Positions 54,919 to 64,000 of a DNA stretch of 64,000 nucleotides are shown piece by piece. This DNA is from Escherichia phage fp01. The DNA lies in sequence record NC_048731.1. One strand, written 5' to 3'. The notes under the pieces were generated by a model that saw only the letters and a list, made by a program, of their open reading frames with translations, did no database searches and was not told where the DNA came from. How positions within the stretch are numbered: the first letter of the stretch is position 1; every line of letters starts with the position of its first letter. The translations under genes were made by a program, and so were the position numbers.

Positions 54919-55401
54919 ATGGCTGTAGATAGTAGAGAGAAAGGTAAACGTGGTGAATATCAGGTAAGAGATATTCTACGTGAGCGTACAGGTCTTGAGT
55001 GGGAACGTGTTCCTGGCTCTGGTGCTTTTGGCCAGAGCCACGGACTAAAAGGTGACATCTACCTTCCACCACAAAGCGGACACATTAGTAGATACTGCTT
55101 CGAAGTTAAGTGGTATAAAGATGATAATATATCAAGTAATTTATTTAATGTTGGTGAATCCACTCTAGAGAAGTGGTGGCAGCAGTGCTCACGTGAAGGT
55201 GAGCAAATGAACTCCAAACCTGCATTAATATTCAAAAAAGACAGAGGACAGTGGTTAATAGCTTTGGATAGCTCAGACCCGATGGTTGACAACTTAATGA
55301 GTCGTACCCATATGGTGTTAAATAAGAAAGACATGGAAATCGTAATTGGTTTATTTGAGCCGTGGCTACATCATGCATCTGTTGAGGACTTAATTAAATA
55401 A
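54919..55401 (+). CDS. Holliday-junction resolvase-like PD-(D/E)xK nuclease (Hjc-like)
   Basis: 160 aa; KGKRGEYQVRDIL...RVPGSG...DIY...EVK pattern. Confidence 0.55.
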   Translation: MAVDSREKGKRGEYQVRDILRERTGLEWERVPGSGAFGQSHGLKGDIYLPPQSGHISRYCFEVKWYKDDNISSNLFNVGESTLEKWWQQCSREGEQMNSKPALIFKKDRGQWLIALDSSDPMVDNLMSRTHMVLNKKDMEIVIGLFEPWLHHASVEDLIK

Positions 55402-56276
55402 TGAGTAAATCCTGGGGAAAATTTATTGAAGAAGAGGAAGCTGAAATGGCTTCCCGTCGTAACCTAATGATTGTCGATGGAACTAACTTAGGCTTTCGCT
55501 TCAAGCATAACAATAGTAAAAAACCATTTGCCTCAAGTTATGTTTCCACTATTCAGTCTCTTGCAAAATCTTATTCTGCTAGAACTACAATAGTTTTAGG
55601 AGATAAGGGGAAGTCTGCATTCCGCTTAGAGCATTTACCTGAGTATAAGGGTAATCGAGATGAGAAATACTCTCAGCGTACGGAAGAGGAGAAAGCGTTA
55701 GATGAGCAGTTCTTCGAGTATTTGAAAGATGCTTTCGAATTATGTGAAACTACGTTCCCAACTTTCACTATTCGTGGTGTAGAAGCAGACGACATGGCAG
55801 CTTATATTGTTAAGCTCATCGGGCATCTATATGATCATATTTGGCTAATTTCTACCGATGGTGACTGGGATACTTTATTAACTGATAAAGTATCTCGCTT
55901 CTCTTTCACAACACGTCGTGAATATCATCTTCGTGATATGTATGAGCATCATAATGTTGACGATGTAGAGCAGTTTATCTCCCTGAAAGCAATTATGGGT
56001 GATTTAGGGGATAATATCCGAGGTGTTGAAGGTATTGGGGCAAAGCGTGGGTATAATATTATTCGTGAATTTGGTAACGTTCTGGATATTATTGATCAGC
56101 TTCCACTGCCTGGAAAACAGAAATATATACAGAATTTAAATGCTTCGGAAGAATTGCTTTATCGAAACCTAATTCTGGTTGATTTACCTACCTACTGTGT
56201 GGATGCTATTGCTGCTGTAGGTCAAGATGTATTAGATAAATTTACAAAAGATATTTTGGAGATTGCAGAACAATGA
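55401..56276 (+). CDS. 5'-3' exonuclease / flap endonuclease
   Basis: 291 aa; MIVDGTNLGFRF N-terminal motif, EADDMAAY, helix-hairpin-helix region. Confidence 0.9.
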   Translation: MSKSWGKFIEEEEAEMASRRNLMIVDGTNLGFRFKHNNSKKPFASSYVSTIQSLAKSYSARTTIVLGDKGKSAFRLEHLPEYKGNRDEKYSQRTEEEKALDEQFFEYLKDAFELCETTFPTFTIRGVEADDMAAYIVKLIGHLYDHIWLISTDGDWDTLLTDKVSRFSFTTRREYHLRDMYEHHNVDDVEQFISLKAIMGDLGDNIRGVEGIGAKRGYNIIREFGNVLDIIDQLPLPGKQKYIQNLNASEELLYRNLILVDLPTYCVDAIAAVGQDVLDKFTKDILEIAEQ

Positions 56277-56719
56277 TTAAAATTAAATTAACTCATCCAG
56301 ATTGTATGCCTAAGATTGGTTCCGAAGATGCTGCAGGTATGGATCTGCGAGCATTCTTTGGTACTAACCCTGCTGCAGATTTACGTGCTATTGCACCAGG
56401 CAAATCCCTAATGATTGACACCGGTGTCGCGGTGGAAATTCCGCGAGGTTGGTTCGGTTTGGTAGTTCCTCGTAGCTCTTTAGGTAAGCGTCATTTGATG
56501 ATTGCAAATACCGCGGGAGTGATTGACTCAGACTATCGTGGAACTATTAAGATGAACCTGTTCAACTACGGTTCTGAAATTCAAACTCTGGAAAATTTTG
56601 AAAGACTTTGTCAGCTGGTAGTAGTACCACACTACTCAACTCATAATTTTGAAATTGTTGACGAACTAGGGGAGACTGATCGTGGAGAGGGTGGCTTTGG
56701 AAGTTCGGGAAGTAAATAA
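56273..56719 (+). CDS. dut: dUTP pyrophosphatase
   Basis: 148 aa; AAGMDLRA, PRSSLGK, GVIDSDYRG, C-terminal RGEGGFGSSG motifs. Confidence 0.95.
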   Translation: MIKIKLTHPDCMPKIGSEDAAGMDLRAFFGTNPAADLRAIAPGKSLMIDTGVAVEIPRGWFGLVVPRSSLGKRHLMIANTAGVIDSDYRGTIKMNLFNYGSEIQTLENFERLCQLVVVPHYSTHNFEIVDELGETDRGEGGFGSSGSK

Positions 56720-56740: not shown

Positions 56741-56776
56741 AAACCCCAGAGGGATATCCCTCTGGGGTTTTCTTTT
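56741..56776. terminator. bidirectional rho-independent terminator between convergent dut and tail-fibre genes
   Basis: perfect hairpin CCCCAGAGGG-ATAT-CCCTCTGGGG flanked by A-run and T-run. Confidence 0.7.
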
Positions 56777-58904
56777 ATTGAGGTACTATCTGTACCTTTA
56801 ATTGCTTGAGTTCTTCTTCTAAGTCTTCAATCCTTTTAATAAGATCTTGAACAACATGCATAGTATCAAGAAGCATTGGAGTTGTATCAAGTTCTTTTTG
56901 TTCCTGTTCTGCCCCATTGTTATCATAGAATTTTCTAGTTTTAACATAAAGCGGTTCTATAACTTCTGTTTCCTGAGCGATAACACCTCGTCTTATACGT
57001 TGAAGATTATCGTTATTATATATGAATGTCACAAAGTTTAGATTTTTGATGTTTTCTAAAGCTTTTTCAACAGTTGTATTTTCTATAGAATGTTTAAGGC
57101 GCCTATCTGAAGTTGCATTCTTTTGTAAAGTGTATGTTTCTTCTGATCCTGGTTGCCATTTGTGGAAAAAAATATCGGAATTTAATGGTTGAATACCGAC
57201 ACGAACTCCATAAGCGTTATTAGCATCGCCAGCAATATGCCATACGGATTGTGCAAAAGATGTTCCGTTGTGATGAATCATCCCCCAGTGACACGAAGTC
57301 TTATAACCACCTTGACTAGATTGGGCACCACTAAGAAGACTATTAAAAGCGTAATTTGCTCCAATAGCCTGGTCTTCCGCGCTAAATGTACCTTTAGTAA
57401 AACCTGTTTCACTCCAAGCCATCATAGTCCCATATCTTGCTCTATATCGATCGCTACTCAGCGTACCTGTGTCATCAAAGGCAAGGTCTTTTGTCACCCC
57501 TTTTGTCTTGTTGTATACAGACAGAATCGCATAATAAAGGCCATCCATGTATGCATCGCATCGCAATCCTGCATCCGCTTCAACAACGGTGCCGATTTTG
57601 TATTGGGCCTTTACCTGTCCTGACAATGCCTTTACGCCAGAGCCTGGGCGGACAGCATCAGCATTCATTACACTCCAAGACGTATTCGCGGCAACAAAGC
57701 CACCAGAGGCACGAATCACCCAAACGCCGACAAAGTTGCGCGGAACGATTTCTGCTGCTGAACGACCATAAACAGGACTGCAGCGAGAAGCGTCAAAGTT
57801 GGTTTGTATGTACCTTGAACCAGAGCCAACCGCAGCAGGAGCGTCCCCCGAAGTTATCGACTGAAAAGCACCGTTAGTTGCCACTTGGCTTGCTAAAGAA
57901 GCCAATGTCACCATTGTGTGCGGCGCTGCGTAAGTTATATTTGGAGCGCCTGATTCAGACACAACCCCGTTGGACGATGAATTCCCGCCGTCACCCCTGC
58001 CAAATAAGGCCTGTATGGAACCAGTTTGAACACCGTTCCTGTCAGGCACTCGAAACGTTGTTGTTCCGTTACCCAAAGAATATTTACCACGCTTTGATGC
58101 GTCAGCAAGCCATTCCGCATCTGAAATCGGCGTAAGCATTTGCGCATATGCCCAAAGCTCAGGCCAGTCAGCCCTGTTAAGAAGCTGCCCATCAGAAACC
58201 ACCTCATACGGTTGAATATACGCACGGCTATCTCGAAGATGGAAATCACCGACACCGTAGTTCATCACGCCATTCATTGTGGGTCCTACTGTGCCAGTAT
58301 TAATTTTGTTCTCCACCCAACGCTTAGTTACAGCATCATAATCATTAACGGGGTCTCCCGCAAGGGGGGTAGATCCAATAGGACGAACATTTAACCACGC
58401 AGCTGCGCGATCTGCTAAATCTGATAAATTATTTTCAGTCAATAGGCTTTCGTCTTTTGTTGGCACATTATAACTTTGTCTAAAAGCTTCTTTTGATACT
58501 ACTCCAGTACCCCCTTGTTCTATAGAAAGTGCAGTGGTTAAACCTGTTAAAGATTTAATAGTTGAGTTGGCACCATCCATGTCTATACTAGCAAATCTTG
58601 ACCATGCAGTCCATGAACTGTAAAAAGATCTACTATATATCTCATTACTATTATAAGGTAAGTAAATTTGAGTACAAGAAGTTGCTAAATTGCTTGCATT
58701 ATTTTTTAAAACTAGTAATGTACCTGCAGCCGCAACAGGATAGTTAAGAGAAGTAGGAGAGTTAGCATTTTCAGATTGCCAATACTTTCCATACACACTC
58801 CCATCAAGTGTATTTAAATTTGTTCCTGTAGTAATTAAACCATATACAGGTAAAGCGGCTACATCAGTAGCCTTTAAGTTAATTTTATCAATTCTAAGAG
58901 CCAT
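56775..58904 (-). CDS. tail-fibre protein with C-terminal intramolecular chaperone (peptidase S74-like) domain
   Basis: 709 aa; C-terminal ...SDRRLKHSIENTTVEKALENIKNLNFVTFIY...QDLIKRIEDLEEELKQLK typical of auto-cleaving chaperone domains of phage fibres. Confidence 0.75.
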   Translation of the reverse strand: MALRIDKINLKATDVAALPVYGLITTGTNLNTLDGSVYGKYWQSENANSPTSLNYPVAAAGTLLVLKNNASNLATSCTQIYLPYNSNEIYSRSFYSSWTAWSRFASIDMDGANSTIKSLTGLTTALSIEQGGTGVVSKEAFRQSYNVPTKDESLLTENNLSDLADRAAAWLNVRPIGSTPLAGDPVNDYDAVTKRWVENKINTGTVGPTMNGVMNYGVGDFHLRDSRAYIQPYEVVSDGQLLNRADWPELWAYAQMLTPISDAEWLADASKRGKYSLGNGTTTFRVPDRNGVQTGSIQALFGRGDGGNSSSNGVVSESGAPNITYAAPHTMVTLASLASQVATNGAFQSITSGDAPAAVGSGSRYIQTNFDASRCSPVYGRSAAEIVPRNFVGVWVIRASGGFVAANTSWSVMNADAVRPGSGVKALSGQVKAQYKIGTVVEADAGLRCDAYMDGLYYAILSVYNKTKGVTKDLAFDDTGTLSSDRYRARYGTMMAWSETGFTKGTFSAEDQAIGANYAFNSLLSGAQSSQGGYKTSCHWGMIHHNGTSFAQSVWHIAGDANNAYGVRVGIQPLNSDIFFHKWQPGSEETYTLQKNATSDRRLKHSIENTTVEKALENIKNLNFVTFIYNNDNLQRIRRGVIAQETEVIEPLYVKTRKFYDNNGAEQEQKELDTTPMLLDTMHVVQDLIKRIEDLEEELKQLKVQIVPQ

Positions 58905-58913
58905 TTTAACTCC

Positions 58914-59219
58914 TTATGCCCACATGCGAACAGGTGTTTCTGGGTTTACTATAAATTTATCTAGTATAGAGAGATCAAAATCATCAATATTCATAATACG
59001 CAGATTAACGTGATATCCTTCTTGCACTACATACTCAATATCTTCTATATTTTGATACTCTGTTAAGGGTTTTGCAGGCTGACTGATAATACCGATAAAA
59101 TCAATACTGACATTTTCACAATATAAACTACCTGTTTCTTCATCTAAACTAAAGCCAAATTTTATCAAATTAATTTTCATTTCATCAGCATTAGTAAATT
59201 TTAGATATAAATCTTTCAT
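58914..59219 (-). CDS. hypothetical protein
   Basis: ORF track 101 aa. Confidence 0.45.
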   Translation of the reverse strand: MKDLYLKFTNADEMKINLIKFGFSLDEETGSLYCENVSIDFIGIISQPAKPLTEYQNIEDIEYVVQEGYHVNLRIMNIDDFDLSILDKFIVNPETPVRMWA

Positions 59220-59265: not shown

Positions 59266-61169
59266 TTACCGTAAGCCATTAATTTGATCATTATTTAAAG
59301 CCCTATACCATACTCGGAAATTCTTAATATGATATACAAATTTAGAAGGGGTAGGAGATGGTGATGCACCTAACCTAGACGGAATACCTGTCAAACTCAC
59401 GGGAGTACTAGTAGATTTAGCAGTTTTACCATTAAAGAAATTACTAATCTCATTCCCTGTTATTTTTTGAGCATAGGTCATAGGAGGTAGACTTTCTATA
59501 TCTGGAATAGCTAAGGTTGGCCCTGTACTAGATCTATATGTTCTTATAGTGGCATTATCAGCGCTATCACAGCGGCAGATAATGTCATACTTAGAACCTC
59601 TTACTTGCATAACTTCTACATAACTAGTATAAGGTCGTACTTTACAATTAAATTCAAAAGATACTGTGCGCTCAAAGTAGTCCGCCAGGGTTCTATAGCC
59701 GGCATTATCTGGTATACACCACCATTCATCTGCTGTTCTAGTAGTGGTGGTATCAGTGCTATTACGGATGTAAGAAGTTGGAGCTATGCCTTCCTCAACC
59801 TGTATACCCCAAATGTAGAAACCAGAAACACCATCCCCCTGGTAGACAGTAGTATTGGTATTTTTAGCCATCTGGAGTCTAAATATAGTGCTTCGACTTT
59901 CAGTGGCTGCAAAAGAAACCCAAATTCTATATATACCTCCAGTTAATCTCTCATACCCCCCTCTAATATTACTAGCAGAACCACTTGTAGCAACAGTTTC
60001 ATTTTTAATATCAAAAAACATACCAACAGTTGTACCGGAAGCTACACGTAGATATACTAAACGGTTAGCGGTATCATCTTTAACATAAGCAGAATAGCAA
60101 TAAAAAGTATCAGCAGTCAAAGATATCCATTTATCGTTGCAGTAATGCTCGCCGTCATTGGTATTCTCGGTAAACTTAGTCATCAACATTTCGCCAGTCG
60201 GGCACGCCGAAGCATTAGGAGTTGTAATAACTAGACTACCTCCAGTAATTGCTTCTGAATTAGTATATAAATTAGTGCACTGAGACTCCATTAATAAACC
60301 TTGCTTTTCAAATCTAGGTTCATTAATATCTGCAAAACACATTTTACCACTTTTATCTATATAACTGGCGGTAGTTGAGCGAGTAAAATTTGCAGATTTT
60401 GTTGGCAATTCCAGAGTTACATCATTAATTGTTGCTAAATCGTAGGGGGCCATACCAGATAATAATCTCATATCATCAGTTAAAGGTACCCAAACATCCG
60501 GATAAGGGACAGGTTCATACATAATAATACTAGCAGCAGAAGCAGCGGCGGCAGCTTCAGAAGCTTTAGCATTAATTTCAGAAGCTTTAGCGTTAGTCTC
60601 TGAAGCTTTAGCATTAGTCTCAGAAGNNNNNNNNNNNNNNNNNNNNNNNNNNNNNNNNNNNNNNNNNTTTTACTTGCTAATGCATTAGTTTCGCTAGTAG
60701 CAGCATTAGTTTCCGAGGTTTTAGCTTTGGTTTCACTAGATTTTGCATTAGTTTCTGATGCTTTTGCATTAGTCTCGGATGTTTTAGCCTTAGTTTCACT
60801 AGCTTTCGCATTAGTCTCAGATACTTTAGCTGCTGCGGCTGATGCTGCAGATCTATCCGCTGATGCAGCAGATTGAGTAGCAGATGTAGCGGACTGAGTG
60901 GCAGAGGCTTCAGAAGCTCCAGCAGAAATAGCAGCTTCCTGTTCAGAATCCTTAGCATTAAGTTCTGAAGTCTTAGCAGCTATCTCAGAAGCTTTTGCAG
61001 CTGCAGCAGATTTAGCCGTAGCCTCAATAGAGGATACTAATTCACTTGCAGTAATAGAGCTAATAGAATTACCTAGAGTTACAGTATATCTAGGAAATTT
61101 ACTAGCAGTAGCTTTAGTATCATCAATATTTAATATCTGTTGTACAATAATCTTAGTAGTTACTGCCAT
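59266..61169 (-). CDS. tail-fibre protein with N-terminal S-E-T-N-A-K-A heptad repeats, interrupted by an assembly gap
   Basis: ORF track splits it (59266..60522 and 60480..61169); the frame of the downstream ORF stays open upstream through SETNAKASETNAKASEINAKASEAAAAAS to the N run, matching the repeat in the upstream ORF. Confidence 0.55.
60627..60667. other. assembly gap (41 N) inside a repetitive coding region
   Basis: run of n characters flanked by near-identical 21-nt repeats (aagctttagcattagtctcag...). Confidence 0.95.
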
Positions 61170-61591
61170 TATTTAGTTACCCCATCACTGATAAATACTT
61201 TACCCTCCATTATGCGAAAGGAGCTAATTGCAGATCCTACAACATCTCTAGTCATGATTATATCATAGTATCCTGCTAATCGCTGACGGGGGTTATACTT
61301 ATCTCTATCTTTAGATGCTTTAGCTCCTAGATTTTCCACGGATTCTACTGGCAAACTTATAGCCACAGCCCCCTGGGCAGCATCAATAATATTAGTAGTA
61401 AAGGATGCTAGGGTTTCTGCGTTCTCTTCTAGACTACTTTTTATAACACCTCTTAGAGAATACCCCGTTAAATTAACAGGGGTATTTGTAGGTGGGTAAG
61501 TACTATCATCAACATCTAAGAACTGCATCATTAAACCATATGGTACTTTCTCATCTATTACTAAGTCTATAACTCTATTTTCAGTACTCAT
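61169..61591 (-). CDS. hypothetical tail-associated protein
   Basis: ORF track 140 aa; start overlaps neighbour stop. Confidence 0.45.
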
Positions 61592-61594
61592 TAT

Positions 61595-63652
61595 TTACCT
61601 TATATGGATGTACCCGTTTTGCAGGTCTATCTTCATTCTGTAATAGGCTTCCGGGTTGGAGGATAGTGCTGCTGCACGATCATATATAATATTTACACCG
61701 ATTTGGGATAGGAAAGCATTACCAGCAACTATTTTACTAGCAGTTACAGTACCATTAACTATCATATCACCGTGTAAGACCATAGCAGGGCTAACCCATG
61801 CCGAGCCATTCCATTGTCTAGTAAATGCTGTTTGCGGAGCATTACTATTAAACTCAGTTAATACATCGTATTTAACAGGCGGGGAACCAAAATTACTTTG
61901 GAAGAAGGAGTTAGCACGACTATCGTCCCATCCTCCTAATCCGGCCACTCCAAGAGAATACATGCCCGGACCTCTCTGGCCATCCGCACCAATAGTACCT
62001 TCAGTACCACTCCACTGAACAACATCCGCCCAACTAGTACCTTCCAATAATTTATTTGTAACAGGGTCTAGAGTACCAGTTGTAGCATAAATATTCTGAG
62101 TCATATCAGTACGGTTAGGTGGTGTTTTAGACCATCCAGGAGGCGGATAATCTTGCTCCAATGGTTTTGCTGGCAAACTTTTACCAAGTTTATAAACAAA
62201 TACTGTTTGTTTACCCTGCATCCCAGTACCAATATCTACGTCTCCATTAGGAGTACCAATAACAACTCCACTAGAAATACGAAGAGTATCGCCATCATAG
62301 CGTATCCACTGAGTAGCATTACCTATATCTAACTTTGGCTTAGCAGAAGTGTTATCCATTCCCATCCAGATACCAGATTTTGTATCTCCCCAAGTTTTAC
62401 CTTGAGTATAGATTGCCGGGTTATCTTGGCCAGTTAGATTAGTCATTACAAAGTTAGCAGCATTGATAGTTTTAGTTATAATACTACCATCAACGTTAAC
62501 TATCTTTTTAATAGGGTCGAAAGATATTGGTGCTTTTCCTTCTGCATCTAGGAGGCCTATATTAATAGCACCAGTAGCAGCATCGATTAAAAATGTTTGC
62601 TTCCACGTGGAGCCATCTTTGATCTTACCTTTAATATACGCATAGTTTACTTCTATACCAGTTTCATTAACAAAGCTATTATCAAGATGGGTGTCCTCAT
62701 TTAGTATAAAAGTCTGTACTGCAGAATCTGTAACATCTTGAGCATTTGGCCCCCACGCTATAGAGGAGACCTTAAATTTATGCTCAATTTTCCACGGAAA
62801 CGATATAATAGTTGCCGCTTGTGCAGCACCTACGTTAATTTTTTGGGCCTTAGTCCATCCAGTTCTTGCAAATTCTGTGGAATCTATATAAGAAACGACA
62901 AATTCCCGAACATTGGCTCCAGATCCCCTATTCCACTCCCACTGTACACGAAGGTCATATCTCTCTTTACCATCTGCAATTCTTGCAGCCTTGAAGGTAA
63001 TATTGCTAGGAGCAGTGGGCGGTACAAAGTTATACTCTACAGTAAGAACTTTAGAAAATTCAAAGTATCCAGAGGAGTCTACCGTTACACCATCAGGCAT
63101 AGTAACTTGCCCTGATATGCGTACTTTATAATCACCAATAGGGACACCACCAAATCTAATAGTGGGGGATAACGGACCTACATAATATTTTACCCACGTA
63201 CTATTTGAAGGTTGAGTACTTTTTAACTCAATAGTACAGTAGCTTGCTTCACCAGTTGTTTCTACGACAACTATCGGTGCACCTACCCCAACATCCACAG
63301 GTTCTGATTCAGATCTTGCTGCAACAATTGTTGGCTTCTCTTTTGTCCTAAAGTTAGTCTCATTAGAGAGATTGATACCAATCTTAGCCTCTAACAGTTC
63401 AGAATCAATAATAGAGTCGTAAAAAGCCCCTTGAATCTCATAAGAGGTTGAAGGGGTCAGATTATTAATCATTACGAAGAAAGTATCTATACCAGTATAA
63501 TCACGTCTATCTATACTTTCTCCTGTCTTTAACCAAAAAGATCTGCCAATAACGTCATAGTCAGTATATATAGAATGCTGGACATATGCCATTGTATATC
63601 CAGTCATTATACTATTTAAGACCATTTTGGCTGGTGCATTATTCGAAATCAT
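61595..63652 (-). CDS. tail/baseplate structural protein (beta-rich, fibre-like)
   Basis: ORF track 61595..63667; likely start is ATG 63650-63652 (MISNN...) overlapping the upstream stop as TAATG; Gly/Thr/Ser-rich with no enzymatic motifs. Confidence 0.55.
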   Translation of the reverse strand: MISNNAPAKMVLNSIMTGYTMAYVQHSIYTDYDVIGRSFWLKTGESIDRRDYTGIDTFFVMINNLTPSTSYEIQGAFYDSIIDSELLEAKIGINLSNETNFRTKEKPTIVAARSESEPVDVGVGAPIVVVETTGEASYCTIELKSTQPSNSTWVKYYVGPLSPTIRFGGVPIGDYKVRISGQVTMPDGVTVDSSGYFEFSKVLTVEYNFVPPTAPSNITFKAARIADGKERYDLRVQWEWNRGSGANVREFVVSYIDSTEFARTGWTKAQKINVGAAQAATIISFPWKIEHKFKVSSIAWGPNAQDVTDSAVQTFILNEDTHLDNSFVNETGIEVNYAYIKGKIKDGSTWKQTFLIDAATGAINIGLLDAEGKAPISFDPIKKIVNVDGSIITKTINAANFVMTNLTGQDNPAIYTQGKTWGDTKSGIWMGMDNTSAKPKLDIGNATQWIRYDGDTLRISSGVVIGTPNGDVDIGTGMQGKQTVFVYKLGKSLPAKPLEQDYPPPGWSKTPPNRTDMTQNIYATTGTLDPVTNKLLEGTSWADVVQWSGTEGTIGADGQRGPGMYSLGVAGLGGWDDSRANSFFQSNFGSPPVKYDVLTEFNSNAPQTAFTRQWNGSAWVSPAMVLHGDMIVNGTVTASKIVAGNAFLSQIGVNIIYDRAAALSSNPEAYYRMKIDLQNGYIHIR

Positions 63653-64000
63653 TAAATGGATGCCCACTCCACAGACTGTTCTCCATCATCTCCTTCCGCT
63701 CTAATACGAAAATATAGTTTTCTATTGATTCCTAGAGCATCACTATTATGAAGAGCAAAATCTGCCTTATTATACATTAATAAATAGTCATAAGTATACT
63801 GATTTTCAATACGTACACTTCTTAGCATTCTATTCTGGGAATCATAGATTTCCAGAGTATAGAATATACTTTCTATTATATCTTCTTCTGGTATCCTATC
63901 CCAAGCTAGTTTTACATCTGGGCCTACAAATTCAGTTACATCCCCAGAAGCCGTATTAGTTACCCTAAAATTAGATACTACGCTTAGGTTTTTAGCAGAG
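63652..64000 (-). CDS. partial CDS (C-terminal part; N-terminus beyond window end), probable tail structural protein
   Basis: open minus-strand frame from the window edge to stop at 63652-63654 (...EWASI*). Confidence 0.4.
   Translation of the reverse strand, partial: SAKNLSVVSNFRVTNTASGDVTEFVGPDVKLAWDRIPEEDIIESIFYTLEIYDSQNRMLRSVRIENQYTYDYLLMYNKADFALHNSDALGINRKLYFRIRAEGDDGEQSVEWASI

Follow-up and report, generated by a model that had tools for sequence, protein, structure and literature searches.

Introduction

The closest described counterparts of the gene considered here are the lateral tail fibre proteins LtfA of phage DT57C and pb1 of phage T5. According to cryo-electron microscopy of DT57C, nine LtfA chains insert their N-terminal strands into the dodecamer of LtfC that makes up the collar, augmenting the LtfC beta-sheets; from T40 on, the chain continues as a long helix, and three such helices wind into a coiled coil that points away from the tail (PMC10713586). 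LtfA residues 223-471, which are similar to phiEco32 gp14, were proposed to hold a second fibre, LtfB, via its gp15-like N-terminus (PMC4728585). T5 pb1 (phrog_24369, 1396 amino acids, aa) is one long fibre with an LtfC/p132-attached anchor, a Ser/Ala stalk, an S74 chaperone and a polymannose-binding tip. A further relative is known from outside the tail: the RcGTA head fibres mediate attachment to capsule polysaccharide (PMC7296036), and their protein Rcc01080 (6TB9; NCBIfam NF048003), a member of a family implicated in capsule attachment, sits as a single chain on a pentameric head-spike base via an N-terminal Leu/Gly peptide. Here we describe positions 59266-61169 (minus strand) of a stretch of 64,000 nucleotides (nt), hereafter the window, from Escherichia phage fp01 (NC_048731.1), a Tequintavirus with a genome of 109,515 bp sequenced by MinION (at 29.68x) and MiSeq (PMC9961651). 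We consider it highly probable that this region is a single proximal lateral (L-shaped) tail-fibre gene, the counterpart of LtfA and of the N-terminal part of pb1, split in the record by a placeholder of 41 N. It is a known kind of gene with a combination of head domains that has so far been annotated only generically.

The fp01 gene begins in the same way as ltfA. Residues 1-219 of its product match DT57C LtfA (PDB 8HQZ chain d, 8hqz_d; E 7.8e-38; 53% identity in pairwise BLASTP), with residues 1-39 nearly identical and T40, the start of the helix, conserved; pb1 aligns over the first ~165-200 residues (E 3e-45 to 3e-66). Both phrog_5481 and phrog_24369 match from position 1, and Pfam gave no match for the anchor or the stalk. 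As in DT57C, the locus lies between ltfC and a second, LtfB-type fibre gene. The open reading frame (ORF) just upstream, 61169-61591, is LtfC by Pfam (PF23926, E 3.5e-13, above the cutoff) and by phrog_34807, 'collar tail protein for L-shaped tail fibre attachment'; its stop overlaps the start ATG of the fibre gene at 61169 (TAATG), and the order of these two genes is the same in DT57C, in phage IME178 and in two related sequences (L006 and L007). The tail-fibre identity proposed in the original prediction, which was made by a model from the sequence alone, is thus borne out by the DT57C LtfA match, by the PHROG families and by the position of the locus.

Beyond the stalk the proteins part. 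DT57C LtfA has the gp14-like LtfB-docking region and a C-terminal Peptidase_S74 domain; the fp01 protein has neither, and its head consists of a GTA-spike-fibre domain and a LamG-like domain. The fp01 locus also differs from that of DT57C in an extra gene of ~100 aa between the two fibre genes and in the unrelated N-terminus of the second fibre. In contrast to pb1, the fp01 fibre is short, carries another head and is followed by a second fibre gene. The match to the Rcc01080 family covers its full profile, but in fp01 this domain caps the coiled coil of a tail fibre and precedes the LamG-like domain. Nearer in architecture are AKFV33 orf137, which has the same head architecture at 26% identity and is followed by an 88-aa homologue of the small gene and a second fibre, and side tail fibres of Leclercia lambdoid prophages, which share the stalk motif, a head ~50% identical and a 100-aa partner, but have another N-terminal anchor and a position after gpJ. 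Stalk length varies among IME178, phage HMD-P3, the AKFV33/SP15-type phages and the Leclercia relatives. Targeted literature searches found no experimental study of the IME178, HMD-P3, AKFV33 or Leclercia fibre proteins. The S74 chaperone is a feature of T5 pb1 and of DT57C LtfA and LtfB rather than of the N-terminal family, and the fp01 gene is thus a variant.

Results

A probable single gene interrupted by a run of N

Two overlapping minus-strand ORFs are called in the region, 59266-60522 (418 aa, beginning MYEPVPYPDVW) and 60480-61169 (229 aa including X's), and the only N run of the window is the 41 N at 60627-60667. The frame of the 418-aa ORF, re-read from the sequence, is open 5' of its ATG back to the N run, where it encodes SETNAKASETNAKASEINAKASEAAAAASAASIIM-YEPVPYP. 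Known coding sequence amounts to 502 nt upstream of the gap (167 codons and one base) and 1361 nt downstream of it (two spare bases and 452 codons). Continuity of the frame demands a gap length divisible by 3, and 41 leaves a remainder of 2; the nonsense tail LLRLMLKLQRL... of the 229-aa ORF appears because the placeholder shifts the frame. The N run is therefore an assembly placeholder of arbitrary length, since its flanks are contiguous in relatives and 41 N break the frame. The public fp01 record annotates a 418-aa 'hypothetical protein' that starts at the internal ATG, and so the break sits in the deposited record itself.

Comparison with relatives supports the reading of the two ORFs as halves of one ltfA-type lateral tail-fibre gene. 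Megablast found the whole region in phage IME178 at 94% DNA identity (95% protein identity over the head), annotated there as one tail-fibre coding sequence (CDS) of 729 aa. A protein search yielded 11 relatives, 87-97% identical in the C-terminal part, in which the gene is one ORF of 519, 520, 630, 631, 666, 680 or 729 aa. Both halves align colinearly with these genes, the flanks at 93-95.5% (89.7-95.1% DNA identity for IME178). In all 11 the segment between the same flanks consists of heptads only. Against the 630-aa gene of L006, a 111.9-kb Logan contig with the closest full-length relative, the upstream 502 nt correspond to positions 1-502 and the downstream 1361 nt to positions 536-1893, which leaves opposite the N run exactly 33 nt encoding NAAAASQTAAKT; the segment opposite it in IME178 is 327 nt long. 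Both halves match PHROG tail-fibre families, and one tail-protein family, phrog_1419 (793 positions), spans the two.

The internal ATG at 60522 was rejected as a genuine start: of the 11 relatives, P0009 alone has ATG here, the other 10 encoding Ile or Thr, and the 18 nt before it (TCTGCTGCTAGTATTATT) contain no Shine-Dalgarno-like motif.

The relatives also bound the length of the gene. Filling the gap with the L006 or the IME178 segment gives an fp01 protein of 631 or 729 aa, respectively. The known fp01 residues before YEPVPYP number 202, and fills that keep the register are 12, 19, 26 ... codons, that is 33, 54, 75 ... 327 missing nt. A protein of 631 aa is the minimum and the most likely length, because the nearest relatives P0002 and P0009 have 631 aa; 680 or 729 aa are possible. 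In these respects the original prediction holds throughout: it had reported the two overlapping ORFs, the open frame upstream of the ATG of ORF 59266-60522, an N run inside the repeat array, and a single gene split by the gap whose repeat number and length are not fixed by the record.

Organization of the locus

The features of the gene and of its neighbours are as follows (positions in the window; residues of the reconstructed protein, unless said otherwise).

59266-61169, minus: ltfA-type lateral tail-fibre gene interrupted by the N run, supported by intact single ORFs in relatives and colinear DNA alignment.
61053-61169, minus: anchor, residues 1-39, putative beta-strands inserting into the LtfC collar, from near-identity to DT57C LtfA residues 1-39 and its cryo-electron microscopy structure (PMC10713586).
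60668-61052, minus: stalk part 1, residues 40-167, 18 heptads S-x-x-x-A-x-x of which the last 7 are SETNAKA-type, from lag-7 periodicity, 21/42/63-nt tandem repeats and homology to the LtfA coiled coil.
60627-60667, no strand: 41-N placeholder within the heptad array, standing for at least 33 nt, possibly ~180 or 327 nt, of repeat.
60520-60626, minus: stalk end, SETNAKA SETNAKA SEINAKA SEAAAAA SAASIIM, including the spurious ATG 60520-60522 (Met is Ile/Thr in 10/11 relatives).
60391-60519, minus: neck or linker (YEPVPYPDVWVPLTDDMRLLSGMAPYD...), with a predicted local distance difference test (pLDDT) of 53-78 over residues 1-40 of the C-terminal model, kept in the A1 consensus and in the homologous loci L009 and L004.
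59731-60390, minus: head domain 1, a predicted beta-sandwich of the RcGTA head-spike-fibre type.
59269-59730, minus: head domain 2, a predicted LamG/concanavalin-A-like beta-sandwich ending ...FRVWYRALNNDQINGLR (stop codon 59266-59268), from a sub-threshold Laminin_G_3 match and Foldseek matches to laminin LG4-5.
58914-59219, minus: 101-aa partner gene, with homologues next to related fibre genes.
56775-58904, minus: second lateral fibre, LtfB-like, 709 aa, with a C-terminal S74 intramolecular chaperone domain, from Pfam Peptidase_S74 and identity to DT57C LtfB.
61169-61591, minus: LtfC (p132) collar protein, the fibre attachment site, from Pfam LtfC and phrog_34807.

The genes flanking this module, at 55401-56719 (plus) and 61595-63667 (minus), are homologues of the flap endonuclease (D15), the dUTPase and the straight-fibre protein pb4; they stand in the same order as in T5 and DT57C, and the context is thereby confirmed as a Tequintavirus tail module.

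The heptad stalk

Residues 40-166 of the upstream ORF form 18 unbroken heptads in which positions 1 and 5 are Ser and Ala, respectively, and their register begins at the conserved T40, in the segment homologous to the resolved LtfA helix. Identity of residues at lag 7 is 0.54, a value that not one of 10,000 shuffles attained (0.167 +/- 0.031), and Tandem Repeats Finder reported periods of 21, 42 and 63 nt on either side of the gap. The heptads that border the gap on its two sides share one register class. From these features the stalk is predicted to be a coiled coil with a Ser/Ala core, the core residues being spaced by 4 and 3. The claim of more than 14 imperfect SETNAKA-type heptads in the original prediction stands under a loose definition, which gives 18 before the gap, and fails under the strict form SE[TLI][NK]A.., found in only 8 of these 18 and in 3 of the 5 heptads after the gap; that the repeat is the same on both sides of the gap was correctly recognized.

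A comparison of repeat copy number among isolates had been proposed along with these claims. In the relatives, the distance from the start to YEPVPYP is 102, 214 (213 in one with a T5-type N-terminus), 249, 263 or 312 residues, and these distances differ by whole heptads throughout. The IME178 array (L001:6442-6987) contains a super-repeat of 147 nt, equal to 49 aa or seven heptads, with copy spacings of 105 + 42; this period fits the 49-aa steps between the protein classes of 631, 680 and 729 aa. Beyond it, a repeat search of the arrays found nothing long and exact, and the super-repeat does not by itself account for the assembly failure. We dropped the idea that whole-heptad steps are a sign of selection on the coiled-coil register: the rule is no evidence for selection, because in-register assembly collapse or unequal recombination between 21-nt units yields the same pattern.

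Artefacts and suspected errors in related records

In Escherichia phage HMD-P3 (PQ462667) two overlapping CDSs are annotated at the homologous gene, ending and beginning with ...SEERRVGKECFLRCRSRWSPYH and MVAVSLXX..., respectively. The DNA at this point (L002:6679-6754) holds AGATCGGAAGAGCGTCGTGTAGGGAAAGAGTGT, an exact match to the TruSeq adapter of which none is expected by chance. The inserted segment consists, in order, of the TruSeq adapter, 8 more bases, GTGTAGATCTCGGTGGTCGCCGTATCATT and NN, all within the heptad array, and GTGTAGATCTCGGTGGTCGCCGTATCATT, on the 3' side of the TruSeq adapter, is what we take to be the reverse complement of the Illumina P5 adapter. With adapter sequence and NN inside the array, the HMD-P3 split was rejected as a real gene boundary. 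The same heptad array has thus broken two independent assemblies, leaving N's in fp01 and an adapter in HMD-P3.

Elsewhere in the IME178 record (MZ398246), at L001:748-5655, five CDSs in a row, all named 'tail fiber protein' and some overlapping, take the place of pb3 and pb4. Both genes are single ORFs in fp01, DT57C and HMD-P3, which suggests frameshift errors in the IME178 record at pb3/pb4.

The C-terminal head

The C-terminal half of the protein had been described as Thr/Ser/Gly-rich and beta-rich, and as a possible receptor-recognition domain for which a structure prediction was proposed. Its composition (T 12%, S 8.6%, G 6.5%) agrees with this description, as does a confident AlphaFold2 model of the C-terminal 418 residues (pLDDT 89.7, pTM, the predicted template modelling score, 0.87; alignment of 104 sequences), which is almost all beta-strand and consists of a less confidently modelled neck followed by two beta-sandwich domains.

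Domain 1 matches NF048003 'GTA_spike_fiber' with 112.1 bits (cutoff 36) over profile positions 1-182 of 182, at residues 111-298 of the 452-aa fragment, and the RcGTA head spike fibre Rcc01080 with E 4.8e-20. Domain 2 ends in the LamG-type motif FRVWYRALNNDQINGL and is modelled with the LamG-type jelly-roll beta-sandwich fold; several homologues carry Laminin_G_3 (PF13385). In Foldseek the C-terminal model matches laminin LG4-5 tandems with probability 1.0, and its fold neighbours are mostly carbohydrate-binding modules (CBMs), with lectin, CBM and LamG matches among them. The homology to the RcGTA spike fibre and the lectin-like fold of the model thus support a putative receptor-recognition role for this part of the protein. 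Pfam found Peptidase_S74 in the neighbouring 709-aa fibre (E 3.6e-12) but neither in the two halves in the window nor in the IME178 homologue, which is intact.

Among 50,697 deposited phages this allele of the head was found only in IME178 and HMD-P3; phages of the AKFV33/SP15 type have the same architecture at 26% identity. When fp01 is compared with a homologue of 33% identity, conservation is seen in the neck and the final strands, and divergence in the middle of domain 1. More generally, the neck is conserved even in homologues of 33-50% identity, and domain 1 is the part that differs most between alleles. Such a pattern is what a putative specificity determinant would be expected to show.

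The partner gene, the second fibre and a possible junction

The 101-aa protein encoded immediately after the fibre gene is 44% identical to the product of the gene that follows the Leclercia lambdoid prophage homologue and 34% identical to AKFV33 orf136, and a homologue also follows the fibre gene of another T5-like contig. A member of this small family lies directly downstream, usually with overlapping stop and start, in 77 of 80 IMG/VR loci encoding the head, many of these loci being closely related, so that the 77 are not independent observations. The AlphaFold2 model of the 101-aa protein has a pLDDT of 90, and comparison of this model by fold gave no informative neighbour. Its probable role is to assist in assembly of the fibre head or to serve it as an adaptor.

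From residue 111 on, and so for most of its length, the 709-aa second fibre is 43% identical to DT57C LtfB, with one stretch of complete identity; the 110 residues before this are unrelated. The protein is a mosaic: it is nearly identical to DT57C LtfB and AKFV33 orf135 at residues ~177-254, and much of the distal part is unrelated or divergent.

In many related loci the third gene starts with MA[NL]RxDxI(N/S/T)L, the rest of each protein differing (243-719 aa). This start is found in fp01 (MALRIDKINL, 58875-58904, minus), in L009 (MALRQDTINI, L009:5310), at L004:7978 and in many of the loci L012-L089, and is missing from DT57C LtfB and AKFV33 orf135. Its conservation ahead of such varied sequences suggests that MA[NL]RxDxI may be the docking peptide of a modular branched junction. 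In a subgroup of loci (L042-L049, L052, L059, L060, L081, L086, L087 and L090) the gene after the fibre and its partner of 94-95 aa encodes 356 aa; it starts with MDDNVTLRVNGREWGGW and does not share the MA[NL]RxDxI start with the fibre genes found downstream in the other loci. Therefore the fibre and the small gene seem to be the core cassette. Since no gp14-like region is present in fp01, where only residues 1-219 of the first fibre align with DT57C LtfA, the junction must differ from that of DT57C, if the fibre is branched.

Discussion

The proposed mode of action of the fp01 fibre follows that of its described relatives. Residues 1-39 would thread into the dodecameric LtfC collar encoded just upstream. 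Three chains, by homology to LtfA, would form a rod, longer or shorter according to the number of heptads. With its three lectin-like heads the rod would reversibly bind a surface polysaccharide, O-antigen or capsule, and so speed adsorption, as the lateral fibres of T5 and DT57C do. The head would fold without the autocleaving S74 chaperone of pb1 and LtfA, and the 101-aa downstream protein may help in this.

Several observations weigh against this picture. A frameshift or stop may lie hidden under the N run in fp01 itself. The range of lengths seen in the relatives derives in part from short-read metagenome assemblies, and such assemblies are able to collapse 21-nt repeats in register. Laminin_G_3 matches domain 2 with E 3.6e-4 and 21.1 bits, under the gathering score of 27.6, and only the last 60 residues align. 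The best fold match of the head is not a lectin but Pa193 gp46, a baseplate wedge protein that holds a trimeric fibre by a loop. Of the RcGTA fibre, only residues 2-10 are resolved in 6TB9, and the part homologous to the fp01 head is not among them. Finally, trimer formation, the arrangement of the heads and the binding of surface polysaccharide are inferred.

The match to gp46 bears on the alternative that survives best, namely that the C-terminal two-domain module mainly docks the 709-aa LtfB-like fibre, perhaps via the 101-aa protein, in a branched fibre whose junction is not that of DT57C, and that it is this second fibre that mainly binds the receptor. LtfA of DT57C does carry LtfB, through the gp14-like and gp15-like regions (PMC4728585), and fp01, which has no gp14-like region and whose second fibre starts with 110 unrelated residues, needs another attachment site; moreover, the trio of fibre, ~100-aa gene and MA[NL]RxDxI fibre recurs in T5-like phages and Leclercia prophages. 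However, domain 1 belongs to the capsule-linked head-spike-fibre family, most fold neighbours of the module are carbohydrate-binding, and the module diverges between alleles more than any other part, as is typical of receptor-binding domains. The MA[NL]RxDxI start is not found in the second fibre of AKFV33 or in the loci with the 356-aa MDDNVTLRVNGREWGGW gene, and the two roles are not exclusive, DT57C LtfA having both. Docking as the main role of the module is thus a possibility to be kept in mind, though a rather doubtful one.

There is also a more elaborate proposal. The fp01 type may be a distinct branched fibre with a tunable rod and three independent lectin-like heads, collectin-like and lacking a trimeric beta-structure or S74, together with a new kind of junction, made by the partner and the MA[LN]RxDxI peptide, by which interchangeable second fibres plug onto the head, the whole cassette being shared by T5-like phages and Leclercia prophages. 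Taken as a whole, we regard this proposal as unlikely.

It is far less probable that the gene is truly broken in fp01 by a frameshift or stop under the N run, leaving an anchor-stalk stub and at most a separate head translated from the ATG at 60522. This would be in line with the unread bases, with the annotation of the 418-aa ORF as a protein by NCBI and with an in-frame ATG that is shared by P0009, and loss during propagation is conceivable, given that rough laboratory hosts can be infected without lateral fibres (PMC10713586). But the region is intact in all 11 relatives, an in-frame segment of 33 nt fits exactly between the flanks, the Met at 60522 is Ile or Thr in 10 of 11 and has no Shine-Dalgarno motif before it, and both halves are well conserved and free of other defects. 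A head without anchor and stalk could not join the virion, and the only 'split' relative, HMD-P3, is a case of adapter contamination. Finally, it is most improbable that the N run hides something other than heptads, such as an inserted element or a DT57C-type LtfB-docking region: the length under the N's is formally open and LtfA-type proteins are mosaic, but heptads alone stand between the flanks in 11/11 relatives, IME178 included, and both flanks are heptads in the same register class.

A single lateral tail-fibre gene split by the record is thus the reading that we retain, and it has consequences for fp01 itself. Its reference record offers a 418-aa 'hypothetical protein' where a lateral tail-fibre gene of 631-729 aa belongs. 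The words 'fiber', 'fibre' and 'pb1' have no occurrence in the fp01 genome paper, where the polyvalent Escherichia/Salmonella host range is credited to gp108 (PMC9961651). Lateral fibres of T5-like phages govern infection of O-antigen-bearing hosts (PMC4728585; PMC10713586); therefore a complete ltfA sequence matters for the interpretation or engineering of the fp01 host range. Beyond this phage, the heptad array repeatedly defeats short-read assembly, and stalk lengths in databases need caution. The conserved ~100-aa partner represents an uncharacterized family of interest, and the gene as a whole provides a further example of modular fibre-head exchange between virulent and temperate phages.

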